A DNA stretch of 63,963 bases, counting the filler, from Atractiella rhizophila (lineage: Eukaryota), in NCBI GenBank assembly GCA_021432655.1. It is 4 parts of 4 records of this genome, joined end to end, with 100 filler letters (N's around TTAATTAATTAA, not from the genome) between each part and the next. Parts side by side here need not be neighbours in the genome. Positions count along the whole stretch, not along the records: positions 1 to 20,716 come from MU271807.1; 3 more parts are not named here. The stretch is one strand, 5' to 3'. The translations under genes and the position numbers were made by a program. Numbering within the stretch: position 1 is the first letter of the stretch; each line of letters opens with the position of its first letter. This document shows, in pieces, positions 17,661 through 63,963 of this stretch. The notes under the pieces are model-generated. The model did not search any database. It was not told the origin of the DNA and worked only from the letters and a program-made list of their open reading frames with translations.

Positions 17661-17827
17661 AATACAGATGGAGGTAAATTAACGGGTGACCTTTGCAAAC
17701 TTGGAAGCGAAACTAGAAGTGAAGGACAACGAGGATTCTATTGCATATCAATATGAACTGGACACACAACTTGTTCACCCACACATAGAATGTGGCAACA
17801 TGNNNNNNNNNNNNNNNNNNNNNNNNN

Positions 17828-19240
17828 TTCTTGGTCGAGAGCGATGGTTAACTATTTTAATAATCACGCACCGCTGCATACTCTGACGTTCCACGCTCTG
17901 GCTTTGTTCGTCACAATTATAACATCATATACACACTATTCACTTTATGTAATGGACGTTCCACGCTCTGGCTTTGTTCGTCACCCAGAGCGTGAACGTC
18001 CCGTTAAGAAGAATATCGTTTCTTCCGACTTATTATTCTTTCGCGCTCGTTTCTACTTTCTTTCGGAATTATGTGTGGTTTGCACTACCTTCCTCCTCCG
18101 CGTTCACGAGGGCACCGGGGTAGTGACAGCTTAGGATTAGGACCGTTGTTTCCGTATCGGACGTTTGGGCAGTCGTTTTCGTCTTCTTCCGTTTCCGCAG
18201 CATAGCCCGCAACTTTCGTCCATGACGACTCCTGACTTTCTAGTACTCTTAACTAGTCACTCTTACCGATTCACTATCTTATTGGATGGAATACATGTCC
18301 CGGGGTTTTACGCGTAAAGGTGTAGTTGAGCAACTATAGGTCGGAGAAGAGGTTGTAACGCAGTTAGCGGTCAAGGTGTCTGACCGATAGGTACTAAAGC
18401 CTACCCAAGCAGCTCCGTGATCTTCCCCACGTACGACACTTCACATCTCTGTGTAACCTTTTACGACCGTCGGTAGGTTAGCCAAAGAAGAACGAGGTCG
18501 GCAGTCTAGGTCCAAGAACCCGTCCTTTCCTCACCATATCGATGTTGTGTCGCTGTGTCTGTGTCTCATTAGAGCCCTATAACATTGCCCCTTTCCGCAT
18601 TTTAACGATGTTCACTAGTCACTGTTACCCAACCGATCTAGACAGACTATAGTTATCGAATGAATCAGGTACTGAGGTTCAGCGGAGTCAGTTCAAGTCA
18701 GTGAGTGACTGGACTTGAGATGTCTATTTTCACATGACCTGATTCAGTTAAGGGTTATTTGGGGTAACTCTCAAGGCTGGTACGACTGCTGTAGCCTCGA
18801 CTGTGGTCGTTAGTTCTTTGCGGTCAAGCATGGTTCGCCACCGTCTTTGTTCTATGTAGTTCTTCAGATGAGTAGGGGACTTCGGACGCGACGCTCTTTA
18901 GGTGGTTGCTGATGAGAATAGCCTTTTCTGTCTCTTTCGGCGTTAGGTAGTTGTACTTCGGCTTTTGCTAGTTCTGACTTCAAGCCGGTGCTGGGGCTGT
19001 TATGTTAAGTCTGACGATGATACAGTGGTTTGTTGGAAAGCATCTCAGCTCTGTTCATCAGCTCGACTGCCTCACAAGCAAGTCGGTCTAAGCGTAGGGG
19101 ATGTCATCATCTTCGAGCTTTCATAGAGTAACACTTTTTCCGCAACCGCTCTCTTTTTTTCATCGCTCCATCTAACAACTGACTTGGGGCGTGTTACCTT
19201 CCCGCTGGTTCTCATCTAGCCAAATCCCCACTGCCTAGTC
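17828..19240. other. Reversed-not-complemented (mirror) segment containing flank, 5' LTR and PBS of the adjacent copia element
   Basis: Read right-to-left without complementing: GTAAGC..CTGAT..TTGTAG (18662->18607) and GTAGGT..CTGAT..TTTCAG (18288->18234) introns; LTR end ..TTATCA (17851) then TGGTAGCGAGAG (17848->17837), identical to the PBS at 38470. Right boundary approximate. Confidence 0.8.
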
Positions 19241-19248
19241 AGCCCAGA

Positions 19249-20437
19249 ATGTCTGAAAGCCATGACACCTCCATCATTACTTCTTCGACTATCCCGAAAC
19301 TCGAGGGACGGGAGAACTACCATATCTGGTACTTCCGTGTCCAGGCGAAGCTGCTCGGCAAGAATTGCTGGGGGATCGTTGCTGGAACGGATGTCAAACC
19401 CGTTGCCATTGCGGGAGAGGTTGGAAAGGCGGAGGATGTCGCGAAGGTCGAGGCGACGCAGAAGGATTGGACGAGGCGAGCGAACCTAGCGTACTCGATC
19501 ATCATCGATGCCTGCAAGGATCATGTACTCACTGATATCCGAGAGATCGAAGTTGAAAAGCCGAAGGAAGTCTGGGACAAGCTCAAGGAGCTGTACCAAA
19601 CTCAAGATCGCCAGGCGCGAGTCCTTCTTCGTCAGGAGCTTTACACTTCCCGCTACATCGAGGGCGAATCCATGCGTGACCACGTTAACCGAATCCGCAT
19701 GACAGGACAGAAGCTGAAGGCGATGGGCGACAAAACAGATGATGAGGACATTGCGATGCTCCTCTTGATCTCCTTACCGCCATCCTGGATTGAAGTCGTT
19801 TCCTCCTTCAATGCCGTCTCCTCTTCAGATTTCACCTCCTCTTATGTCGCATCTCGTCTCCTTCTTGAAGCAGACCGAAGGAACCCAGAGTCCAAATCTA
19901 GCGAAGCGTTGGTCACAAAGGCTGGGAGGAGCGGAAGGAACTTTACCAAGCCTATTGGTGGAAGTAGCAGCGGAGGGAAGTCGAAAGGCGAGAAGAAGAA
20001 AGGGAAGTGCAACTATTGTGGTATCGAGGGCCACTGGGAGAGGGATTGCCGAAAGAAGAAGCGGGAGGAAGAAGAGAAGCCTGGGGATGCTAGGATCTCA
20101 GAAGCATTCCACACGATCACCGGAGATGGAACGCACCGTGATGGAATCTATGTCGACTCCGCCGCAACGGATCACATCGTTCCCAACAGGTCCTGGTTCT
20201 CCTCACTATCCCCGCACGACCGTCGTATCCGCTCCTCTCATGGCATCATCACTAAGGCCACTGGAATAGGCAACGTCAAAGTCTTGACAAAGGTCAAAGG
20301 AGTCGAAAGAGAGATTGAACTTACCAATGTTCTCTTTGATCCTGAAATTGACTGTGCCCTCCTCTCCACCGACAAGCTCAACACTCGCGGCTTCGATGTC
20401 ATCTTCTCAGCAGACAAACGAGGGAGAGTCATGAAGC
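19249..20437 (+). mobile_element. Ty1/copia retrotransposon 1: gag (CCHC knuckle) and protease
   Basis: IPKLEGRENYHIW, LLISLPPSW, CNYCGIEGHWERDC, YVDSAATDH, ATGIGNV, LTNVLF..ALLS. Confidence 0.92.
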
Positions 20438-20716
20438 CCCTCAAACCTAACTGCCTGGTTCCTCTGTAGGCCGTGTACCACTCACTACTAGGAGGAGAGG
20501 GTGAAGGTAAGGAGATTGGTAAAGAAAGAAAACGTCGAGGAACTCAGGCCGATTGGGGTCCACCGGCTCGGACGTTACGGTCTGTACTCTCCTTCGTCCA
20601 AAGTGCCAGCACCACTCTAAACGAAAGCGAGGAAAACGTAGGCCCCTTGTCGTGACTGCGTAGATCAAACGCGTCCGGAGGAAGACGTTGTTAGAGACGG
20701 TGGTGTCAGGGTAGTA
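20438..20716. other. Mirror segment encoding the continuation of copia 1 pol (GAG-pre-integrase/HHCC)
   Basis: Read backwards without complementing gives DGTVVAEIVAEGGLRKLD..VWHCRLGHLGLAGLKELQKKEMVRGM..PCAGCLLG, with two 1-bp indels. Confidence 0.92.
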
Positions 20717-20760
20717 NNNNNNNNNNNNNNNNNNNNNNNNNNNNNNNNNNNNNNNNNNNN

Positions 20761-20772
20761 TTAATTAATTAA
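20761..20772. other. Scaffold gap linker TTAATTAATTAA (also at 43745 and 61947)
   Basis: Embedded in N runs; stops in all frames; assembly marker. Confidence 0.95.
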
Positions 20773-21328
20773 NNNNNNNNNNNNNNNNNNNNNNNNNNNN
20801 NNNNNNNNNNNNNNNNTAATACGCTATAGCGCTACCTGAAGGTTCTTTCGGTGCGCAACAACGTTCTGTTTTCTTCTATTTCGTTCATAGTAAGCAGAAT
20901 GCGCTGAGAAAAGCCCTCACACCGTGTTCGTGTTCGCGACGAGGATTCGTGCACGCACCCGCGTTCCACAAGCACCATCGGAAACTCTTTATCACCTTCA
21001 TTCCTCCATTTCATTCTCACATCCACTGTGAGCAATCCTTCGACAATTGGCATTTTGACAGTCAGTTATTGGAAATGTCGACGAGCAAGTTGAACGAGAG
21101 ACCGTAATGGGCTGATGACAGTCCCCCCATGTATTACGTGGGCTCTCAACTGAAAAGGATGGTCAACTTCTATACCCGAATATCCATCCTCTGACTTTTG
21201 CACCTCTCATATATGTTTGAGAGGTTGTAAAATCAGATTCAGGCAAACGATGTTCTAGACAAAATAAAATGTGTCATCACAATAGTTGAGCACATGGTGC
21301 CTGCAGGCAGGTGAAGTTGATGGACGAC

Positions 21329-22336: not shown

Positions 22337-22571
22337 GCACGTTTAATTTCTGGTGCTGCTGAAGTTGTACTAATTGCTTCCTTTAGATTCGGATGTTGAT
22401 CAAGCAACCTTAATTTCTCTGTTTCTTCGATGTAATATCTAATAATTGAACACACGAAGCCAAAGCGTCTGAATGATGAATGACAATGGTATCTGTAATT
22501 GCCACAGAAAATATTTCAACCGGAAAATACAGAGGATTGGGAAATCCAGGATGCTGGAGAACACTGCACTG

Positions 22572-22684
22572 CACACTCTGCTTTACCACGCACACTCTGC
22601 TTTACCACGCACACTCTGCTTTACCACGCACACTCTGCTTTACCACGCACACTCTGCTTTATCACGCACACTCTGCTTTACCAC
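22572..22684. repeat. Minisatellite, ~6 x 19 bp (CACACTCTGCTTTACCACG)
   Basis: Head-to-tail units with no spacers, one internal substitution. Confidence 0.95.
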
Positions 22685-29689: not shown

Positions 29690-30475
29690 TTACATCAATC
29701 TTGGTCTGGAACCAATCTTGGTCTGGAACCGACGAACTTTGCATAGAAGATGTTCCACATTGGCAGGAGAAGGCTCAAACCATGTTCTGACTTTAGGAGA
29801 GAGGCCTTTTTCCGAACACAAGTATTGAACGATAAAAGTGAATAGATCGCCTAAATCCACATTAAGTCCTTCAGGCAGAAGTTGTCGCAGCATATCTCGT
29901 GAGCCTAGTGTAGTATTGTTAGGAGAAGACATTAGAGTAGCCACATCGTTAATTTCTGCTTGCTGACAGAACCCAAGATCGGCTAAATCATGACACAGAT
30001 GCAGCGGACTTAGTCCAGATCCAAAAGGCAGGATATCCAGTGAGCGTATCCAGTGTTTCATGATCTTCCAACTAGGCAAATCGGTAGAGGAATTCTGAGG
30101 TCGTTTGTCCCAGTGGACGCTCGCTGTCCAAGTCTTCTGCACCTGTTTAGGAAATCCCCTGTGCCCTCCTATCCACCGACATGTTTGACCATAAATTGAA
30201 GGATTTGAATAATTCTCCTGATAGTGACCATAGGCATCAGTTTTGACCCAGTCTTGAACCACCCTCAGTACATCATCAACTGATTCAAAGGGTTCAGGAT
30301 GGGAATCGAGAAAGTGACGTGTAAAATGACCCTGTCCAGTTCCTCGGAGGAATAGAAGGTTGAAAAAGAATAAGGGGGAAGACCTCTTCAAAACACTCAA
30401 GCGTGTATGGAATATGAGAGCCTGGGCATTCCCACTTCTCTTCGGTTGATACCAATCGGGATTAGATGCAATCAC
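29690..30475 (-). CDS. Putative aGPT-pyrophosphorylase-like / HhH-glycosylase-fold domain (C-terminal exon of a larger gene)
   Basis: ILPFGSGLSPLHLCHDLADLGFC, LGSRDMLRQL, terminal VEHLLCKVRRF motif; recognised by eye only. Confidence 0.5.
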   Translation of the reverse strand: MIASNPDWYQPKRSGNAQALIFHTRLSVLKRSSPLFFFNLLFLRGTGQGHFTRHFLDSHPEPFESVDDVLRVVQDWVKTDAYGHYQENYSNPSIYGQTCRWIGGHRGFPKQVQKTWTASVHWDKRPQNSSTDLPSWKIMKHWIRSLDILPFGSGLSPLHLCHDLADLGFCQQAEINDVATLMSSPNNTTLGSRDMLRQLLPEGLNVDLGDLFTFIVQYLCSEKGLSPKVRTWFEPSPANVEHLLCKVRRFQTKIGSRPRLM

Positions 30476-30899
30476 TTTGCCAACATTTGAAGATGGTGAA
30501 CAGTTATCTTAAGCAAGGAAAGCATGTATCAGATAATCGTTCAAGGTTCCCAAGGTGATATGATAATGGGGAGTGGATGCAGATGGTGGCAATGGGAGAA
30601 GATGAGTGTCTGGAACAGTTTTCCTTGTTCGATTCCTATTGTTATGTAGATTGTTCGCTTAGTAGATGTTTTCTGGTGTATTTTTTGGTTTAGAAGGATC
30701 AGTTGTAGCACCTTGACGGATCTGATGGGTAAATGTGGCGAGTCTGGAGATGGTGTCTAAGTTTTTATCATTGAGCTCAAGATGAGCTAACATGTTATAA
30801 TCGTTAGATAAGGGTTCTGCCTTCCTTCCAAGAACCTGATATTAGGCCTCACTTATTGTGAACAATAAAGGACATGGATGAAAACAAAATTCTTGAACA

Positions 30900-32990
30900 G
30901 CGGCCATCCAAAAGATGTCCTCTTTCTTATGGCCCAGTTCCAGAAACTGTGATCAAATGCCATCTTGGAAGCTCTCTGCTTAACCAGTCCTCAAAATCAC
31001 TAGCCTTTTTTACAGGTTGGCCAGTATCGATACGATCATGATTTCGTAGAATGGGTAGACAAACCCTTGTAATAAGGTGTGGATGAAAAGGGTGATGAAG
31101 GTTTGGCCGAAACGACTGTCTTCCACTGCTTTTGAACCTTGAGGTAAGTTTCCAATTGGTTGGAGACAAACGATCCCTACAATCTTTGAATGGCAAACTG
31201 AAGCAGAAAAGATTGAGAAAAGATCCAAAGTTGATAGGGGTAGATCTCTTGGCTGCTGAGTCTGACGGCACTTGTCAAGGTAACCAAGCATTTGACGCCC
31301 ATAGTCTAAACACTGAGAAAGTGCGGGATCTAACACCTCTGCTGTATCGTTCTCACTTCCAAGGACAGAAAAGACCCAACCGGCCATGGCAGGAGCTTGA
31401 ATCGATGTCCAGTGATGTATTCTTCGTCTGAAGGAGAGTTGGACATACTTTGCAAAGCGAAAGAGGATGTGAGCCGTAGATTCAACAGTCTGTGCTACTT
31501 CAACCTTTGTAGCCAAATCAAAGAGATGGACAGGGGACTTGAAGGTACTGATTGACTGGGACTGCTCATCAGAGAGTTCCATTGAGAGCAAGAGATTTGA
31601 GATGGCAGGAATATTATCCAATCTGATCAGTGACAGGTCCATTGACAGGAGGCCTTCCAAATCTTTCAGCTTTCCGCTCTTGAGTGATTTTCCAGCTGCA
31701 TAGTATCCTTTGACAACTTCAAGCTCCTCTTGAAGGCAATCAAGACTGAGATCCTTAGTAAAGAAATCCATATTCACGGGATTCTTGATGCGAATAGGGA
31801 CATTGGTTCGTGGTCGAGAGAGAGATGCAGCTTTTCCGTTTGCCTTTGTTGATGTTTTTACTCTTTTTCGTCCCTGATATAGCTATGTTGATATAAGCAA
31901 AATTTCCATATGTTTTAAGCTAGCAAAAGATGTTTACTTACATCTTGATCTAAATCAGCCGAGTCTTCAGCTGCTTCTCCCAAGGTGTTTGCCTTCCGCT
32001 ATGACCAGATTAGTTGATACTCTGAAGAAATTATAAAATATGGTACCTTGTTACGCTGACCTGTAAATTGATTATGAACATGCTGGAGAATATATTTAGG
32101 CTGAGAGATACAAATAAAAGTGGCAGAGACCTACTGAAGAACCTTTTACAGACATCTGGCCCTGAAAGAGCACCTCACGACAATGAGAATCAGCCATTAG
32201 GATTCGCTGGAAATCTGGGGGTAGTTGATGTTGAATTCGGGAGATATAGGTACGAGCAGCTTGTTGTTCAACGTCCGTTTGCCTAATATATGGTCAACAA
32301 TATGTAAATCCGGGTACTAAGGCTTATAATTCCTCAATACCAACCCATAAACCTGTTTTAGCCCTACGTTTTAGCTGAAACTGCATACCATAAATAGGTT
32401 ATACCTTCAGATATAAGAATCCGTCTTACCAATGACTGCCTCTTATAAAACCTCCAATCACTGAACTCCAAGCCATTCGCCTCATCCACCTCCAATTCTT
32501 CATGACCAATCCCTTCGTCACAGTGTAACAGTGAGATAACCTTTGGAGAAACCTTTCCAATTTGGCTAGGCCGAATGTTGAGGTGAAATTTATCTTCCAC
32601 CGCAAACAGTTTCTGAGCCAACTTCAGCGCTTCTTCACGTCCCACAATATCTTGTGGGTCTAACTTAAGTCTTCCAATACTCTGTCGCTCGCCATTCTCT
32701 CTAGGAAGAAAAGTAATAGCATCTGTAATTTTGTTGAAATCAAACTGGATTTGATAGATCGGATTGAAGTAATGTGTGGACTTGTGTAACTGAAGTAGGT
32801 GTTCATGAAGGATAGAGGTAACGTGGTGTGAGGGATCGCTCATGACAAGAAGACCATGTTGTGTCCAGTTCTTGTCTTTTCTTTCGTTTGGAGGGGCCTC
32901 CCGTGAGAGCTGTATTGCAGGAACAAGGTCTCTGGAGGCCAGGCCTATGGGCAAAATGTAAGCACGTTGTGGATCACACTGATGACAATA
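30900..32990 (-). CDS. Hypothetical exons (255-aa ORFs at 31010-31777 and 32364-33131), probably upstream part of the 29690-30475 gene
   Basis: Same strand, long ORFs separated by intron-like AT-rich gaps; no family recognised. Confidence 0.35.
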
Positions 32991-33457
32991 TGTGCTGTGC
33001 AGGTAAGTTTTGTTTATCACAGGTTGAAGAAGAAATCTGAAGCTGTCACAGAGAGATTGTTGGGCTCTCAACCTGATTTTCTTGAACAGAAACCTCAATT
33101 GCAGGAGTTGCTTGAGCATAAAGGACATCATGCCATCTTCCTACCAAAATTTCACTGTGAAATCAATTGTATTGAGTTTGTATGGGGCCATGCAAAGCGA
33201 TATACACGTGGTAAGCACATTGGGCTCCTTGTGGTTGATTAATGCTGAAGCTGTTTCCAGTAAACTGTGATTACATTTTCGAAGGATTACGTCGTACAGT
33301 TCCAGAAGCCCTGAAGTCTATCAAACTCTCCACAATCAGAAAGTTTGAGCATTGCTCTCATTGCTGGATCAGAGCTTACAAGGTGGGGAAGAATGCTATT
33401 GATGCTGGATACCAGGTAAAGGAGTATGCCTCACATCGAAGAATTCCGGAGGCGTGA
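32990..33457 (+). mobile_element. C-terminal fragment of fungal Tc1/IS630-like DDE transposase
   Basis: QPDFLEQK..LQE..GHHAIFLPKFHCEINCIEFVWGHAKRYTR|NCDY.F..L...VPEAL..KEYASHRRIP. Confidence 0.8.
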
Positions 33458-34036: not shown

Positions 34037-34082
34037 AATAACAATGCTATTTCAATGATTGCACTGAAATAGCATTGTTATT
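34037..34082. repeat. Perfect 18-bp inverted repeat with 10-nt loop
   Basis: AATAACAATGCTATTTCA ... TGAAATAGCATTGTTATT. Confidence 0.9.
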
Positions 34083-38143: not shown

Positions 38144-38481
38144 TGTTGTTGGAAATGGAAATGTGAATCGGGAAGCAGACACGACAGACTGGAACACACC
38201 ACACTAACTTATGCATGTTTTGTTTATTGCGGATTTATCTTTGCATTTCACTCCTCCGCTCTGCAGCACTATTAAAGCTTTCTTCCTTTCTTATTCGTTT
38301 CCTTTTCCCCACCACTTTCCGTTTATCTTACTCATATCGTTTTGTACGTGGCTGGGGAATTTAGGTACGCATATCTATTGTAATGACGAACCACTTTCCG
38401 TTTATCTTACTCATATCGTTTTGTACGTGGCTGGGGAATTTAGCTCCCTTGGTTAGCCAAATTCTCACTTGGTAGCGAGAG
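38144..38481 (+). mobile_element. 5' LTR (ends ..CTCA at 38467) and PBS TGGTAGCGAGAG (38470-38481) of copia 2
   Basis: CA end, 2-nt spacer, TGGTAGCG PBS typical of initiator tRNA-Met priming, gag ATG at 38518; LTR start uncertain; internal 54-bp direct repeat. Confidence 0.7.
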
Positions 38482-38517
38482 GCTCGTTATACGATCCAAG
38501 ACGAATCCACGACCGAT

Positions 38518-41500
38518 ATGGATGCAACGGGGCCTACGACGGGCAGACGAGCTGTCTCTAGACAAGAAACTCCTACCGACGATCTCGTTCAACCTACGAA
38601 TTTCAGCGTCCCATACACCGTTTCATCCTCCACGAAACTCAGCTCTGAATTGTTGATTGGAAACAAAATTTCCATCAATAAAGACGAGATACCAGTTCTC
38701 AGCCCGGCAAACGCGACGAAATGGTTTCGAGGGATCAAAAACACCCTTCAGCAGAACTCAGTCGGACTTCTTCTTGAAGGAATCATCACGGAGCCTGTCA
38801 ATCCGCAATCAGCAGACGGACTCACTTTAACCGAAATTCAAGAAGCGAGCGCGAAGGGAGAGGGATATGTGACTAAAGAGACGACGGCGGAAGACATGGA
38901 GAAGTACATCAAGGCCCTCATGAACTTCCAGAAGATGAGAGCGATCGCCATGTCGATACTCAAAGAAGCGGCAGGGGAGACAGCGAGAGTCTTCATCGAG
39001 GGGCTGGAAGATCCTGTAGAGGCGGTGAAGATTCTGAAAGAGAAGTACGGTTCACAAGAATTTATCGACGTCGCATACCTGCTCAAGCAACTCCTCAACT
39101 TCGCCCACAATCCAAATGAATTGCCGTTGTCACAATGGATCGCGAAGCTCCACGAACGAAGAAGGCAGTTTCACGAAGTCCAAGACGCTGTGAAGATAAA
39201 TGATCAATTCTTCGCCCTTATCCTCATCAATGGCCTAACCGATGAAACCAGAAGATGGCTATCCTCCACGGGAACGACGCAGACTGACCTTGCGGCAGTA
39301 GTGCAGAGGCTGACGATGGAAGAGGTGGCTCTGAGGACCAGAGAGGAGGAAAGGGGGAGTTCGAGGGGAAACATCGCGTTGGTCGCAAGGATGAGTGATT
39401 CGTACTCCAAGGCCACGAACGTACCTCTTGTAAACCGCATGTCCATTCCTGAATCGACCTCATCCCAAAGGACGAATCAAAGCACCCGGAGGACGAATTC
39501 ACAATATGGAAGCGGCTCCCTTTCCATGCTCAATGTCCTAGCCCCAAATGCTCGAGAAGTGCCAAACTGGGAGAAATGGCCACACGGAGTGACTGGAGTG
39601 GGAAAATTCAGAGTGGGGAACCGACAATGTTTCAACTGTGGACAAGACGGCCACTTTGGAAAAGCATGTCCCCACCCTCGTGAGGAACAGGCAAAATCTC
39701 TCAACAGAGTCTTCAAGATCTACGGAATCAACCTACCTCAACGAGATGGACGGGCTTTGGTCTCAAGAATCTCAGACCACGACACCTCGGATGCTTCTGC
39801 TGTCATCTCGAATGTACAACCTCAAGCCCTATTCGCCACGAGCGACTATTACGATGACGAGCTCGAAACTGTGGACTTTGGAGCCTACATGGTGACGATG
39901 GAGGGTGGTAGGTCTGAGGAAGAGGAGGCACTAAGGAGGGAGTCGATCTCTGTGGTGGAAGGGACGGAGAGAGCGTTGCTGATCCGCACTCTGGTGCATG
40001 TGAAGGAGCGACTCATGGAAGGAGATGGAGCGACCCTGCAGTTGCAGAAGGTGGATGCATACGAGGACGACCTTCATTTCAAGTTGACTCTACTACGACT
40101 AGGCGACTGGGAAGCGAACTATGAGCATCAACGAGCCTTTAGGAGGACTTTGGCTTCACTCATCGATTTGGCCCTGCTCAATCCCGGCCTCCTATCCTCC
40201 CCAGGGGACGAGCAAATGAATAACGAATTCGAAGCTCTCGAGCAAGGAGAAGACGCAGGTAACGCTCACGATCCTCCCACCACGGATGGAGCTCAGGACA
40301 CGGATTCCGACTCAAATCCTCCCTCCCTCACGGACCAAGCAGACGTTGTGACTGCAATGTTCATTGGAGAATCAGTTGCGGCGGACTCTCCTTTCTACGT
40401 CGACACGGGAGCGTCTTTTCATCTCACGGTGGACAGAGAACTCCTGCACGGATATAGAGAGTTGGAGCGACCTATTGTCATCAAGGGGGCTTTTGGGAGC
40501 ATGGGGAGAGCGATAGGGGTAGGAAATCTCGTTGCAGTGTTTACGCTGTCAGGTGGGAGAAGGACCACTGGAACGTTCACCAACGTCTACTACGCTCCGA
40601 GCCTTGGGGTGAATTTGCTCGCACCGACCATCTTGATGCAACAGGGCGTGACGGTTACTAACGACACCCGCAAGATGTATTTCCATGGGAGGGATGGAAG
40701 GATGTTTGGCGAGGCTGTCTTCGAGCGTGGATTGGTTACCCTTCAGGCGAGTTTCATCCCTCCATCCCCCACCCTGTCCTCTCCACCTTTGTCCTCGATC
40801 GATTCTCATCCCTCCACTCTCATCGCAGTGCCGATTCGTACGTGGCACCAACGGCTAGGTCACCCAAGTAATGAGCGCTTGAAGCTTGCGTTGAAAAATG
40901 GTCTCTTATCTTCGAATTTGTTACGAAAATGCAATGAGAATCGGGTGAATCAGTGCATCGTATGTGCCCGGGGGAAAGCTCGATACGTTCGAAGCCGTGC
41001 GCCTGCACCAGTGAGAGATGACGTTCCAGGGAGGACTTTGGGGTTCGACACCTGGGGACCTGCTAGCGTGCAGAGTCTCCAAGGTTTTCGATATGTCTTT
41101 GGCGTGACATGTGAGGCTACTCGATACATGGTTGTAGGAGGGATGAAGCTCAAGTCGGAGGCATTGTCCAGATTGGAGGAAATCAGGATGGCGGTGAAGC
41201 GAGAGAAAGGGGTAGATCTGCGTACGATTCGACACGACCATGCATTGGAATTTACCTCACGGGCAGTTGAAGAATGGTGCAAACAACACAACGTTTCTTC
41301 GATGAAGACAATGGCATATTCACACGATCAGGCTGGTCTTTGGGAACGTCAATGGTACACCCTGTTCAACATCGTTCGTTGCATACTGCTTGAGTCTGGT
41401 CTCCCACTTTTTCTTTGGTACGAAGCTCTCAAGGTGGCCGTAAGGATGAAGAATATAATGCCGACCAAAGCCAATAAAGGAAGTCAATCACCGTATGAAG

Positions 41501-43700
41501 CATTTCATGGGAAGAAACCAGACGTCGAACACTTACGAGTATTTGGATGCTTGGCTGCAGTCACAACCATGCCTGAGCAGAGGGTCTCGAAACTGTTACC
41601 AAGGGCGACGCGGATGTACTTTGTAGGGTACGTGGAGGATGGGTATGGTTGGCGATTCTGACACCCAGAAAAGAGACGCATAGTGGAATCAAGATCGGCT
41701 ACATTCTTTGAAGATCAGTTCTACACTGGTAGGACGGACGAAGAAACAGACCTGATCCGTGCTGCCCAGCCTGAGGACTTCTTTCCCCTCATCTACGGCG
41801 GCGGTGGAGCAGGATCGTCAAGAGATGGTGATGTGGAGGGGGAGTTTGGAGGGAAACGGGTCCCTGAGCCAACGAAGCGACAAGAACCGATTATCCCTGC
41901 AGAACAATCAGCACCACCATCACCAACCCTAGCGATGAGACACTTACCAAATCCACAAATGCCTACGAGGGATACAGAACCCGCTATGGCTCCAGAGGAG
42001 GACGTGAGGAGGAGGACGGAGGAGGAGGACGTCACGGTCCGCCAACGAGTTCAGCAGATTGAGGGATCAATACGTCGTGAACAGGACGAAAGGGAACGAC
42101 AGATTCACTTTTCACCATACCGTCAGTTACGCAGGCAGAAACGAGAATGGGATTACAAACGCCTACACGAACGAGGGGTTTACTGGGTGAAGTCGCTCGA
42201 AGACGGGGGGCCGGTGGACATGCGAACATGCATCGATGCTCTCAGACAGGAACTGGAGGAGAGACCGGATACTTTCATCAACACAACCAAATCGAATGTC
42301 GCGGATGGAGAAGAAGAAGGGGAGGTGTATTGGACGGGTAATATGGACGAACCCACCTTCAAAGCTGCCATCAATGGACCCGATCGTGTCCATTGGATTG
42401 CAGCAATGATCGCGGAGATAGCAGCCCTCGAAGCGACTGGAACCTGGACTGGCGGAACGGTACCTTTGCCCTCTGGAAGGAGACCGCTTGGAGTGAAGTG
42501 GGTACTGTTGATCAAGAGGGATCCCGAGGGGAACGTCATCAAGTACAAAGCGCGCCTGGTTGTACGGGGAGATCAGCAGAAAGAAGGGGTGGATTACAAT
42601 GAAGTTTGGGCACCTACCTGCAGATCCGCTTCTGTGCGCGCGGTTGTGGCCCTCTCTGCTCAGCTGCGCATGTACCGCTACCAATTCGATGTCTCTAATG
42701 CGTTCCTTAATGGCGAACTCGAGGAAGAAGTGTACATACGACAGCCACAGGGTTTCGTCGACAAGGACAGACCGAACGAGGTATATCGACTGAGGAAGGC
42801 TCTGTATGGTCTTTGTCAGGCTGGAAGGCAATGGTGGAAGAAAATACAGGAGGTGTTCACGGGATTGGGTTTTAAGCGAACGGAAGCAGACCACGGCGTA
42901 TACGTCCTTCGCAAGGATGCCGACTTCCTCATCCTTTGTCTCCACATCGACGATGGACTGGTGGTGTCTACGAGCGAGGATCTTGTAGTGGACATTTTTG
43001 CGCAGTTGGCGTCCTACTTCAAACTCCAGACGGGAGAGGCGAAGGTGTTCCTCGGGATACAGATAGAAGGTGACGAACTGAGGGGATGCGTACGGATGCA
43101 CCAGGCAGGGTACGCGAGACGCCTGATCGAAAAATACGTCGGAACCAAGGTTTCCCCGGTATCTATGCCTTGCGACGCGAGCAGGAGGTTGTCAGCGGAT
43201 TTGTCACCGCGAACGGCTGAGGAAAGGACTTACATGGCATCAGTCCCATACCGCGAGGCTGTAGGAGCGTTGATCTACCTCACCACATGCACCCGCCCAG
43301 ACATCGCCTTTACCGTCTCCGAAGTGGCACGTTATTGGGAGGATCCGGGGGAGCAACACTGGATCGCGATTAAGCGGATTTTCAGATACCTCGCTGGGAC
43401 CCTCGACTATGCCCTTGTCTACGATGGCTATCGGTATCCGAACCCGTTTCCAGACGCTTTTGTGGACGCAGATCATGCTGCTGATCCGCACACACGCCGG
43501 TCTGTGTCAGGAGTACTCTTTCGAAGTGCTGGCGCCGCAATCTCCTGGATATCGAAGCGCCAGTTGGCTGTCGCGATCTCCTCCACGGAGGCTGAATACG
43601 TTGCATTATCGCTCGCCACGAGGGAGGCAGTCTGGTTACGTCGCCTATACTCCGACCTAGGATTCCCGCCCACCTCACCCACCATAATACGAGGGGATAA
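38518..43700 (+). mobile_element. Ty1/copia retrotransposon 2: gag-PR-IN-RT-RNaseH, one in-frame TGA at 41659, 3' end lost in gap
   Basis: CFNCGQDGHFGKAC; YVDTGASFH; WHQRLGHP..CIVC; DTWGP, IRHDHALEF; KYKARLVVRG, FDVSNAFLNG, LYGLCQAG, LHIDDG, TRPDI, VDADHA, SSTEAEY; copia domain order. Confidence 0.97.
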
Positions 43701-44590
43701 NNNNNNNNNNNNNNNNNNNNNNNNNNNNNNNNNNNNNNNNNNNNTTAATTAATTAANNNNNNNNNNNNNNNNNNNNNNNNNNNNNNNNNNNNNNNNNNNN
43801 GAAGTAAATACTAGATATTGATATTGTCAAGAGATCCAGAGTTGATGATAGTTGGTGCAGGCTACAAAGTCGGAAGCAAAAACACCCGTCGACATCCCAC
43901 ATTCGCCATCTATCCACCCAACTACTACCTATTTCCTAAAATCTTATTCATTCATCAATAATCACATACATTCACGAGTTTCCCTTATTCTCGCCTTTAG
44001 AAGTCAAAAAATCAAATGCTGTGCTCCCACCTGTGTGTGGTATGGAGTCTGTCTCGAAGGTGATCTTGGAATCATTAGGATACTTGCACTTCGATTTAGA
44101 CCCCTGAGGAATTCTCCACCTTTGCTATCGTTGTCGTGTAATTTCTCGTGCATAGTTTTGTCGTGCACAACTGTTGAAGTAGTCACAACAAACGCTGGCA
44201 CAACTTTCCTTTACAGCTTTAATTTACGCTCCCTTCAAGTTTCTGAGAGTGAATGGAGGGCACTTTTGTTTGCGTGAGGTCTAGATCGGCAATTTTCGTT
44301 TACAAACTACAAGATCCTGCGAGCTCAAGTTTTGCCCGACAACATTTGTAGTCTTCACCTTAGCACTTGCAAATTCTCATGCAAAATGAATTGCCAGTGT
44401 TCATCGCTACCCTTTACTCGGGGTCCTGCTCCTTCCATGACAGCGTGCTCGGCTCGTCCCTGCATGAAACAAGTAAACATCAGTGAATTGTAGAGGAGTG
44501 GTGAACTGCTTTCCACAATACCGTCCTTTTGTCTTCTGTCTTCCCTATAGGCCGCATACTAACCCTCTGAGGTCAGTTGCTAAATCCTTC

Positions 44591-47105: not shown

Positions 47106-49174
47106 TCAGTGGGTATTTATACATTCATATTCATAGTTTTCGAAAATGGCAGGGGTTTGACTCTTCTGTCCATTTCCAGTTGCAAACATTCCGATGATTG
47201 TGCCTACGGAAAGGTGAGCGCAAGTTTACATGAGAAGAGGAAAAGCACGTACCTGTGAATCCTCCACTAACTCTGCTAGCAGCCACCCTTCCAGCTTCCT
47301 TCCATTCTCCACTTTCCTCCTTAAACCAAAACTCATAATACATCCTCCTTCCAATCACCCTGAGATCGACTTTTCCGTCATCACTAAGCTCCTTGTAAAA
47401 ACAAGGATACTTATTGCTTGCGTCATTGCATAGCTCTCCTCCAGAAGCAATTCGAAGAACTCTCTTGGTGCCTTTCTTCACAGCAGAAGTGGATGCGTGA
47501 GAGAGCTTGGAGGAGGCAGATTGGATACGGAAGGGGATAAACTTGTCGCAGTCAAGGTACACAGCCAATCCTGCTTCTTCACCAGACCCAAAGTTGGGTA
47601 CAAAAGAGAGGGAAACGGTGACGGCAAATTCGACATCTGTCTGTCTCCTTCCTAGAATGGTGATCGGTCCATCACGAGCATCGAGTGAGTTTTCGGTGCC
47701 GAATAAACTCGCTTTCCTTCCTTCAAACTTGAAGTTATCCAGTATCGGATTGCGAAGAAACAAGAGATCGATTGGCACCTCGCCGAGGAGTCCTGTCCCG
47801 AAATTGTAAAGCTTCTTTTCTCCATTTTTGAGCTTCCTTATCCCTCCGTCATATTCTTCCTTGATCAGCTCATACTCAGCCTCCATAACCACCTTGATCG
47901 GTCCATGCCAGACAGGGAACTCTCCCTTCTTCCAAGTAACCGGCAGGACATGTGTCTCCCTCCCCATGGGAAACGAGTAGATTCCTGACCGAACGGCGAG
48001 GGCACAAGCCCACCACTTTTCAGTATCGCCTTCTTCGGCAGGGAACAGGTCAGCGTGTCCAGTGCATGTGATATAATTTGGATGTTTGGGATCGACCGTA
48101 ACTTCGTGAGAAGGGGGAGAAGCGAGAAGCGGATTGTTCGGGGTGCCTTCGTATGGTCCCCACAAATCTTTTGATCTCGCCATCGCCGCCTGGTGATTCA
48201 ACTCCGTCCCACCTTTCCAAAGGTGTAAGCTACTATGCTACCTGAATAAACTGACTCACCTTCAGCAACGAGGAGGTAGAAATAACCATCGCGGTAGAAG
48301 ATGTGAGGTGCTTCGGGAACCCATACTCCTGTTCCTTTCCAGATGCACTTCGGAGGTCCAGAAAGGCTTTCTCCAGTCTTCAAGTCGACTTTAAACTGCA
48401 AAATCTCAGGGACAAACTGCGCTCCCGATGGTTAACGATGACTACTGAATGATTGATCAGAGAGACGAACAGCGTCATCCCATCCTATCGAGCCATACGA
48501 TGTGCCCTGTACGTATGCGCTTCCATCGCCGTTTGGAGATGTGTCGAAGAAGAGAGACGTGTCAAATCCATTCAGCGTAAAGTGTACCGGATCTGACCAT
48601 GGACCTGTCGGGTCAGAGGCAGTGAAGATAACCTGCCAAGATTTAGTTTCAAAAGAATAAGAATTGAGAAAGGGGCAGCTACGTTTTCATACTTCCTCTG
48701 ATCAGGACATTCGTATTGGACGTGTACATTGCAGACAGAAACGTAGAACAATCCATCATGGAACCGAATGGTTGGCGCCTAAGATTACGATATTAGAGGG
48801 ATGAGGAAACCGCTCTAGGGACGCACCCAAATACCGCCACAATGTCCTGGAGGGGAGATGGTGCATTTAAGCAGGTCGATTTGCTCCGGCCTCGAAATCA
48901 CATTCCCTGCCGATCAAGTAATGAGCACAAGCGAAGAGTAGGAGGACGGAACATACCGACGTGTTTCCATGGACCTCGTGGATCTTTCGACGCGTAGATG
49001 GGGATGCCAGGGAACCAGAGGAACGAAGAGGTGACCAGGTAGAAGGTACCATTATGAAGGATACAAGAGGGATCGGGATTGAATCCAGGAACTAACGATC
49101 GAAAATCGTCAACCTCAGCGCAGGTGCCTGCGATCTAAGGGCGAAGACTCACTGACGGGGTTAGCGTATGCCAT
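47106..49174 (-). CDS. Glycoside hydrolase family 43 (beta-xylosidase/alpha-L-arabinofuranosidase type) with C-terminal beta-sandwich; no signal peptide
   Basis: NPV|IPGFNPDPSC, YLVTSSF.WFPGIPI, GGIW|APTIRFHDG, GPWSDPV, PEAPHI..DGYFYL, GPYE..PNNP, GHADL, MGRET, RRQT, GGFTG. Confidence 0.93.
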
Positions 49175-50253
49175 CGGTACGCAATGTTTAGAGTCGTGAA
49201 CGAGCAGAACGAACCTAAGAAGCCGTAGACCTGTGGGGAAGGCAAGCGTCGTACCCCGCGTCTCCTCCTTTTATTCTCATCGATCACGGACTTTCATTGA
49301 TGCTCGGCAGAGGTTAGGCAATTTGCTTTCAAGCTGGAGAGGTTGCTAAAGAGCCGATAATCTGCCGAAGGAGGTCTTAGTCGTGGCAGTCTATAGCTAC
49401 TCGCTGTGAGTAAGGGCTGCATTAGCTAGATTAGGGCCGTTATATCCCCCTCGTCATTCCCTCCCCGCCGCAGCTGTCCCTCTACTTTGTCTACTTTGTT
49501 TTCTCCTTCTGTTCTTCGCTTCTGTTCTTCGGGTCCGTTGTGGTTGGCGTTTCCCAAGTCTTCCATAAAGCGTGTTCGCGTCGAGGTTCTGACGTTCTAG
49601 AAACGTTGGTGAAATACGTTGGCACCAGTGGATATTCCTCCAATCAATCTTGAGAAAATTCAATAAAAAGACTTTGACGGGCTCTGAAAACTGAGAACGG
49701 TCTAGGTCCTCAATAACGAACGTTAATGAACTATGACTGTATCAAGATTTAAATGCTTGGCCGCCAGTTCACTTGTCTTATTCTTAGAGTAATTGCTACA
49801 ATCGTTTAGAGTTGCTCGATTCCTACAAACTGTCGGGAGGACCCCTTATTTCATTGAAACTTGGTGTAGAGAAAAACACCAACATAGTCCGCGTGTGGCA
49901 GTACCTTTTCCATTCTCGCTAATCCTTTCTGGGACGGTTCGCTCTTGCCTAGTCCATGAACGCCTATAACCACATCTGCGAAAATCCGACACTTTCCCAA
50001 GAGCTCTTTATCGACTCTCATCACTCTTCACTAAAAACGAGTTACGAAAACTCTCTTTCGAGTTCTCGGAAGTTCCTCACATCTCCGTCACATTCTGATC
50101 CAAGAGGAAAGTTTGATGGCTCGAACAGACGAAAACCACCGAACACATGTCCTACTCTGGAATTTCTGTCTCGTCTCCAAATGGGTGGAATGAAGATGCA
50201 CCCTGGAGGGAAATCATGAGGCCAGCTTATAAAAAAGCTAGGGGTTCGACGTA

Positions 50254-51050
50254 GATTTAAAATATGCCAAACGATCCGCCTGTCTTCACGACACCTTCTT
50301 CCTTTAGATCTACACGTCGACATAGGACAGCTCTTTGCGTTTATTACTACGCACCTCCAACCTGACGAAGGTGTCTGTCCTGAAGTCAAAGCTCTTCTCC
50401 AACCAATGTCGAACACCTCTTATGCAAAGTGAAGCGTTAAGCAATGGGATGACCATCGACAAACCAAAAAAAGACCAACATGCCATCCGCAACTTATCGC
50501 CCACCCATTCTGCAGGAATGTAAAGAATGTAATCGTCAGCATTCACTGATTCCGAGCTGATTCTAAACAACACATTTACAGCAATAACCGCTAGTGCTTT
50601 TCTTTTAAGTTTCGCTTTCGAACATACAACGGCTGCTTTTGGGGATAAATCAGAGCCCCAATTCTATAAGTCGCTGTTGCGCTCTCTAATATCGTCTTTC
50701 AAATTCCTGTCTATGCAAACCAAATTCAAGCAGTTTAATGAAAATAACATTCATTTCCCACCGTTCGATCGTTTGCAGCCTTACACATCTAGCTCTATAT
50801 TTCAAAGTTGGCATAACAGACAGACTCGACATGGAAATGTGCACAAACGCGCAGGATGGACTTTAACCCGTAATTTGGCTAGCTCCTGTGGCGATAGATA
50901 TCCCATGCATATTGCCATCGCAACAACGATATGACAAAACAAATGCAGCTCATTAATGTTCAACGTTCAATTTCCACTATAGGCAGGTCGGGGACTGGCG
51001 CACCTGCGCCTTTACGATTTAAAATATGCCAAACGATCCGCCTGTCTTCA
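50254..51050. repeat. 35-bp perfect direct repeat (50254-50288 and 51016-51050) flanking 727 bp
   Basis: GATTTAAAATATGCCAAACGATCCGCCTGTCTTCA occurs twice. Confidence 0.92.
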
Positions 51051-61704: not shown

Positions 61705-63963
61705 TGTCAGCGCACAGATATCCGGCAGACTTCACACAGCTTCGCGTCCCGTTCATCATCTCATTGCAAAGAGAGGATTGAGATATTTAGTACTCGGTGA
61801 CTTTTAAGGCTCATGAGAAGCATAGCAATCGTTTATCCTTGAATGTGTTATTATGTCAGTTTCGATCTTCTGCATCGAAAAGCTTTCAATTTCTGCAGCA
61901 GANNNNNNNNNNNNNNNNNNNNNNNNNNNNNNNNNNNNNNNNNNNNTTAATTAATTAANNNNNNNNNNNNNNNNNNNNNNNNNNNNNNNNNNNNNNNNNN
62001 NNCATGAATCACTGATCGCAATGTGGGCCGCCGATAGTTAGGCAGTTACGCCGGTTGTCTATGCTCACTCGTCTCAACAGACTCAGATGTGTCTGCCAGT
62101 GTCGTGATGGCACCGCGGCACACAACCACTTTGAACAACTACCAGCACAAGCGATGTTATAACTTGACTGCTTAACGAACTAACGAACACATTGTACCGG
62201 CCATCATAAGATTTCATACCCGTCCACACAACAACATCAAACCTTCAACATTTTGGACGCGATTTCGTCTAGGACGCTTCTCAATTACGGGTTCACAGGA
62301 ATGACCTGGGCATCAGGGCAGCAGTTTGCAGTAACACGGTGGGGTTTCACTCAGGATAGCTTGTGAGTCCGCTTTACTTTACCATCTTAATCATTGTTCT
62401 TACGAATCCCCCTATTAGGATGGCCCCTATTTATCTATCACATTCTGGAGGAACAGTGGCGCAGATGTTCTGCAAGGATATCATGTCCCTCGTCGCGATA
62501 GACTGCATTAAACTCCTAGGCCACAAATGCTTTCCATGCTTGATCAGGCAAGGAAGTACCAAGAATGAGTAAGATATCTCTCGCAAACTCATTCCAAACT
62601 AAACTCGGTTGCTGCCTTCCTCCCTACTATCGTTTCACACAATATACAACCAATTAGAGGTAGGAAGTAGACTGGACGACCTTGATAGACTATGGGTCGA
62701 GGATTCAAAACAAGCTGGTCAAACATCCGTTTACGGTATGGAAACGCGAGATGGCACACTAGATTTTTCCCGGAAGTCACTCAACTTCTTGTTGACGAAA
62801 TGTGCGAGTGCTTTCCTGAGGCTCGAGTCTTGTGTGGGATTATGGAAGGACGGTAAGCTCATGCTGTTTATGTATATCCCTCACCAGTCGAACAGGGACA
62901 TCAACTTTGATAGTCGTAACGTCGGGATTGCTGTGAGCATGTCGAATCTGGCTCCGTAGATGGGCAGGTACGCCGCCTAAGCGGTGTTTGGCATAATATC
63001 ATTTGCCGACGTTGGGTTTTCATTTCATTTAACATGGCTATTTTGTGGATGCAAGATTTGGCATGGCAGGTGTGTGCAAAGTTCTGTGACTGTTCTACTC
63101 TGAATTCTAAATGGTTTCATAGGCGGATTTCCCCACGAAGCGTCAGTATTAAACACAAATGCTCACGCAACCAACAATCTACCCCAGATCCATCAAGCAA
63201 AAACCAAACCGCCCACGCTGGTACTATCTTCCGACTTCCATCTCCCGACTTCATACATTGAACCGCTCAAGGACCTTAGACTTACTTCCACGATCGGACA
63301 AGTAGCTATCAATCAAGCGGCTCTCAAACCTTTAGGACCAATGCTATTGGAGTTAAGTCAAGCAACCTGTCTAGTCGGCGTTGATGGAAAGCAAAGTGGC
63401 AGGACGTCGACAAGGTCAAAATGCTGCAAACGTTGCTTGCAGCAAAAGGTCATATGTCCATATATTCACCTTCTAGACTCTATTCTGACCCTTCTGGCAC
63501 AGGCACGATCCTATTAAAGCGAGTCTGAATCCTCCTGATACCATGTATGTGCTCTCCGAGACTCGAGATGGGATTAACACATATGTACAAAGATACAGCT
63601 GGAAAGCGACTGGCTTGAAGTGGTTCTTTCCCGCACCTCCCAAAGCAGCCGTTCTGCTTCAGTCGGGGTGTGATGCTTTTGGACCTCTGGTTTGCAGCTC
63701 CATTTACCACCGAGTCCCGTCATACCCTGTTCAGAGGCTTCTACGGAGGCAAAGCAGTGTATCGAAGCCACAATCCATCCCGCAAACTACTGCCATTGCT
63801 TAACGCCTTCAAGTCTATCCCAGCCATCAGGATTGGTTCACGCTACCCCAATATTTGCCAATAGATGTCTACAACTGCACCGCTTCTCGTCCAAAATCTT
63901 CAACCGGGATTTTGGCTTCGGACTGAGATATGTTCTGTATTGAGGTTGGGCCATAACGCCAAG

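Follow-up and report, generated by a model that had tools for sequence, protein, structure and literature searches.

Sequence blocks that run backwards without being complemented have been described in GenBank records as swinger DNA, and the available part of Seligmann 2016 (PMC4942731) reads such cases as biology, including one in the mitochondrial 16S rDNA of Kamimuria wangi. The other described system of relevance here is gap-filling software. According to the available parts of two papers, PBJelly extends flanks into gaps that are left unclosed (English et al. 2012, PMC3504050), and its default setting inflates short gaps to exactly 25 bp (PMC6733440).

The window analysed here is a stretch of 63,963 nt from the genome assembly of Atractiella rhizophila (GCA_021432655.1). 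It contains the 5' half of a Ty1/copia element, of which a correctly written core is flanked on each side by a block that reads as copia-element sequence or its flank only when the letters are taken backwards on the same strand (reverse-only; Table 1). Both mirror blocks end at N runs. A sequence-only reading of the window had noticed the right-hand block and attributed it to a gap-extension error. That interpretation held but was incomplete, as a second mirror block, five times larger, had been overlooked across the core. With high confidence, we attribute the arrangement to an assembly software error in which both extensions of an accurate 1234-base core were mirror-written, that is, to an error of the record and not to biology.

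Table 1. Positions of the core, the mirror blocks and the associated features in the window
Feature	Position	Strand	Remarks
Gap of exactly 25 N	17803..17827		Outer end of the left mirror block; only such gap in the window
Left mirror block, 1376 nt, reverse-only	17828..19203		Backwards: upstream flank, then LTR-like stretch, then primer-binding site
9-base junction overlap	17829..17837		Backwards identical to the first 9 bases of the core, 19204-19212
Primer-binding-site motif written backwards	17838..17848		12-mer match to the second copia element
Correctly written Ty1/copia core, 1234 bases	19204..20437	+	Leader plus gag-protease frame 19249-20436
Right mirror block, 279 nt, reverse-only	20438..20716		End of protease region and GAG-pre-integrase/HHCC of the same element
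100-base spacer: 44 N, 12-mer with stops in six frames, 44 N	20717..20816		Identical at 43701-43800 and 61903-62002
Second copia element, normally written, internal control	38470..43700	+	Pre-integrase, integrase and RT in forward frame up to the spacer

The copia element and its right-hand block

The gene content of the window is fungal (Hsp20, Vta1, a family-20 glycosyltransferase, a GH43 hydrolase, a helicase and a G-patch protein). Twelve frames of the window were tested against Pfam: seven had a match above or near the cut-off, one had a weak GDI match below it and four had no match. No tRNA genes were found in the window. A stretch of low GC content (41-44%) at 29690-33140 holds three minus-strand open frames of 258-290 codons without a Pfam match. 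Among the repeats were a 19-base minisatellite of about six copies (22571-22684), an imperfect inverted repeat of 46 bases (34037-34082) and an exact direct repeat of 35 bases whose copies lie 762 bases apart (50254-50288 and 51016-51050). Two head-to-tail, near-identical duplications were also observed, at 1667-2942/2932-4204 and 53495-55131/55126-56762 (98.6% and 99.6%, respectively). Their copies differ almost only by substitutions and double part of a Vta1-like gene and of an F-box-like gene, and they are probably two haplotypes placed in tandem by the assembly.

The frame spanning the core (19183-20469) was assigned by Pfam to the copia gag-protease region, with matches to PF14223 Retrotran_gag_2 (E 2e-31) and PF22936 Pol_BBD (E 4e-16) and a zf-CCHC match (PF00098, E 3.6e-4) of 20.9 bits against a cut-off of 20.8. 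The core thus carries a copia-type gag with a CCHC knuckle. The β-barrel of the protease region (PF22936), found in the forward reading, is directly followed by the pre-integrase HHCC region, which is found in the backwards reading only, and in the backwards reading of the left block the primer-binding site lies two bases behind a CA, after the LTR-like stretch, and ahead of gag. With the blocks turned round, the parts come in the order flank, LTR, primer-binding site, gag, protease and pre-integrase, as in an ordinary copia 5' half.

The right-hand block had been placed at 20438..20716, and these limits proved correct; as written, the forward frame stops 10 codons past 20436. The three peptide stretches quoted from reading 20716 to 20438 on the same strand were all recovered, in three successive frames, and the suggested search of the reversed string for copia homology gave a strong pre-integrase match. 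The homolog set consisted of 151 proteins fetched with the forward frame (one from one search and the best 150 of 8877). With a blastx threshold of E<1e-3, 44 of these proteins matched the block in the reverse-only reading, the best of them at 1.3e-13 (38% across 69 residues), and not one of the 151 matched it in any of the three remaining readings. A downstream profile, independent of the forward frame, was built solely from the downstream pieces of the 80 homologs (of 151) that reached at least 110 residues beyond the equivalent of the break. When 3459 stop-free pieces, taken from 12 readings of the whole window, were searched with it, the reverse-only right block came first (E 1.2e-12) and the window's second, normally written copia element next (E 8.1e-12), with the third match at E 0.71. 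The frameshift-aware PSSM score was 68.9 for the reverse-only reading versus 16.0, 17.4 and 10.9 for the others, and the highest control scores were 18.7 among 30 randomly chosen pieces read backwards and 18.4 among 30 shuffles. The reverse complement, in which an ordinary inversion would show its homology, matched 0 of the 151 proteins at E<1e-3, and its PSSM score of 17.4 was at control level. The presence in the record of a reversal without complementing at 20438-20716 was confirmed. When the reversed window was compared with the window itself, no long nucleotide match was found (best E 1.6e-4, a 29-base self-mirror), and the window therefore contains neither a second copy of the block nor an overlap with the left contig end.

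Two single-base insertions typical of noisy long reads had also been proposed in the right block. The first is demanded by the reading frames. The forward frame enters the backwards frame that begins two bases in, and that frame stops at codon 67; the main homology match lies in a different backwards frame, which has a stop at codon 18. Hence one +1 shift is required, and it was placed within about 20662-20632, a region with a run of four C. Reading through this shift with an X added 4-5 bits and moved the start of the match from profile position 26 to 4, and of the readings only the backwards one matched the downstream profile, over positions 4 to 85-87. Since the match reaches profile position 4, the block joins the core in register. 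The second shift, at about 20455, added 1.3 bits, a score equalled by about 1% of 20000 random 5-mers; a frameshift there is probable but weakly supported. A frameshift-aware alignment with a penalty of 7 used neither shift. In the comparison of fill and contig, the 279-nt block has one required and one weak +1 shift at places where the true letters are not visible. Because the visible part of the true continuation amounts to 30 letters, we infer, rather than observe, that both one-base insertions are long-read errors.

The second copia element served as the internal control. Over 38150-43700, it has a single stop (41659-41661) between its integrase and RT parts and a 54-base direct repeat upstream of its primer site, and it is cut by the spacer inside the RNase H region.

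The left-hand block and base composition

The 9-mer that starts the core occurs once forward in the window, at 19204, and once in the reverse-only reading, at 17837. The primer-binding 12-mer likewise occurs once forward, in the second copia element (38470), once reverse-only (17848) and not at all in the other two readings; we take this site to be likely of the initiator-tRNA-Met type. Read backwards, the left block ends with CA, two bases, the primer-binding motif and then nine bases identical to the first nine of the core. This overlap is presumably a leftover of imprecise trimming.

To compare the two directions of the text by composition, we used cross-validated Markov models of orders 2-4 and took the log-ratio as written minus reversed. 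The left block (17828-19203) scored -20 to -21, and all 39 controls of the same size were positive, with a minimum of +10.8 and means of +29 to +33. The right block scored -13 to -14.5; 214 control windows averaged about +6 with minima of -6 to -8.5. The core (19204-20437) scored +32 to +35. In an order-3 scan without preset boundaries, the two strongest mirror-like segments were about 18026-19015 and 20437-20716. At either end of the left block (17828-18025 and 19016-19203) the score was slightly positive, forward-like and ambiguous, and it is the core junction, not composition, that fixes the block's inner limit at 19203. The TA/AT ratio was 1.28 in the left block and 5.0 in the right block, and 0.43-0.66 elsewhere. 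By the Markov test, the window's six remaining gap flanks are normally written, and at its gap side the second copia element is not mirrored, its forward frame continuing to the spacer.

Some further observations concern the same tests. The true forward sequence at 43612-43700 scored -7. A candidate third mirror-like stretch without an adjoining N gap was seen at 49137-49606 (about -10), extending more weakly to 50076; over 940 nt the score was -5.9, the lowest of 1213 overlapping control windows of that size (mean 20.6, sd 7.1), and the TA/AT ratio was 1.39. This stretch could be a closed gap that was filled backwards, or could have arisen by chance. Within the left block there is a 30-base direct repeat (17885-17914 and 17955-17984), which in the backwards reading lies just upstream of the primer site, as the repeat in the second copia element does. 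A TATA-like 15-mer occurs backwards at 18072 and forward at 38270, 224 and 200 bases ahead of the respective primer sites; the motif was defined post hoc, and the parallel is only suggestive. The backwards left block was also aligned with the region upstream of the second copia element, primer site excluded, and this comparison was rejected, as its score of 25 was reached by 42 of 200 controls. An intron pattern gave a single match in the backwards left block, which was uninformative since the counts in the rest of the window (9, 13, 13 and 15 over the four readings) fail to separate the readings.

Sequencing contigs at the junctions and the origin of the blocks

Three public sequencing runs contain part of the stretch, X1 and X2 from one sample and X3 from a second one, and the assembly may itself derive from one of these runs; no RNA run carrying the stretch was found among the public runs listed. 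Their contigs are short-read-like and family-level, that is, they describe a multi-copy family and neither span this locus nor reveal the read type. On about 19204-20437 there were 63, 66 and 19 contigs in X1, X2 and X3, respectively, from more than 99% to less than 90% alike, a spread that suggests a multi-copy family. Two contigs of 531 and 237 nt on the core each had one differing letter and no gap. Contig depth was zero on 17828-19185 and 20447-20716, to which no weight was given, as the records are filtered and there is no single-copy flank control.

At least one junction-crossing contig was found per run. Those listed for X1 and X2 exit the window after 20437 and that for X3 after 20438. 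Among the loose ends listed, 30 of 30 letters past the junction equal the window read backwards from 20716 or 20715 in all three runs. The core is therefore continued by the reversed letters and not by the letters as written, which is what the sequence-only reading had suggested checking in sequencing data. On the other side, loose ends before 19204 and 19208 (X1, X3) carry the primer-binding motif, which the window lacks at that place. The string relation holds on both sides of the core, and the true continuation is present in public contigs.

The reversed-string copia match and the reversed letters in contigs of three runs both support a gap-extension error. In the proposed course of events, a short accurate contig (19204-20437) inside a multi-copy copia element would have been extended into the gaps on both sides. 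The extensions were probably low-coverage long-read consensus; the core is gapless against the closest long contigs, and the 279-nt block needs at least one frameshift. In the scaffold output, extensions L and R would have been set down as reverse(L) + core + reverse(R). This would result if the contig was flipped and the fills were complemented but not reversed; equally, plus-strand fills may have been reversed but not complemented, and the sequence cannot separate the two routes. The 25-N gap at 17803-17827 fits the PBJelly default and suggests PBJelly, and we regard a PBJelly-like program as the probable source. A literature search, with most subscription journals and software issue trackers outside its scope, found no report of PBJelly or any other gap-filling program making this error. 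The available part of PMC8848313 has no occurrence of 'reverse' or 'bug', and a match to '25 n' in that of PMC5689209 was unrelated. Points that weigh against a gap-extension error are the six unmirrored gap flanks, the forward-like ends of the left block, the weak second shift, the family-level nature of the contigs and the third candidate without a gap.

It is unlikely that the artefact arose in another step, such as scaffold re-orientation, format export, curation or the preparation of the window. A gap-extension program is only suggested by the 25-N gap, and the 100-base stop-codon spacers imply at least one further formatting step; the spacer 12-mer gave no match in the literature that could be tied to this record. 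However, the limits of the faulty blocks fall exactly on the core edges and on N runs, with 9 bases of trimming overlap, and only a step that keeps fills separate from contigs produces such boundaries.

Polymerases copy antiparallel templates in the 5' to 3' direction, and copying without complementing is impossible. Real mirror DNA on both sides of the core in this one copy (a 'swinger' exchange A<->T + C<->G), made for example by the reverse transcriptase of the element, conflicts with this mode of copying and is extremely improbable. The string relation is exactly as defined in the available part of PMC4942731, and since contigs drop rare variants, a lone odd copy in a multi-copy family could go unseen. 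Nevertheless, every junction-crossing contig among those listed continues in normal order, and two independent events would be needed, one into apparent host flank and both ending at assembly gaps.

Chance resemblance, an ordinary inversion or an unrelated insertion after 20437 has a still smaller, negligible probability and is already refuted by the contig junctions and the homology search: reversed sequences may give more false matches than shuffles (available part of PMC11099658), but the 30 backwards control pieces reached at most 18.7 against 68.9, the nucleotide match was 30 of 30 at the exact junction in three runs, and the reverse-complement reading found none of the 151 proteins.

Significance and comparison with described systems

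The error is biologically unimportant, as the underlying DNA is an ordinary copia element; its value lies in quality control. The affected bases amount to 1655 of 63963 (2.6%) of the window. Six-frame translation, BLAST and read mapping all miss mirror-written fills, and therefore genes within them seem absent or truncated, while the junk reading of such fills is open to annotation as orphan ORFs. A low-order Markov test of the text as written versus reversed detects mirror blocks without homologs. Whether an undocumented gap-filler fault has left such blocks in many public assemblies we judge to be roughly an even bet.

With the 5' half of known Ty1/copia elements, the locus shares the domain order of gag, zinc knuckle, protease region and pre-integrase HHCC (PF13976-type), and its primer-binding site is identical to that of the window's second copia element across 12 bases. 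It differs in that the middle 1234 bases alone are normally written and that the integrase core, RT, RNase H and 3' LTR are absent from the record, which ends at the spacer at 20717. Among the best 150 of 8877 database proteins, identity to the element does not exceed 37%. A near-identical full-length protein or locus was not found, one search giving a single 21% match and a further one none, and there was no near-identical element among 579 metagenome and 136 viral pattern matches.

The locus resembles PBJelly flank extension, as far as the available text describes it, in the addition of sequence at contig ends into open gaps, the 25-N gap and the small trimming errors at junctions; unlike it, the fills here are uncomplemented, which the available parts of PMC3504050 and PMC6733440 do not describe. 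With swinger DNA it shares a sharply switched block of reversed, uncomplemented template within otherwise normal sequence. In contrast to a transformed order in DNA molecules, the listed junction contig of each of the three runs is in normal order, at the family level. Independent sequence data carry the normal order across the switch and therefore make the block an error of the record, which shows that reversed, uncomplemented blocks like those reported as swinger DNA can stem from such errors.
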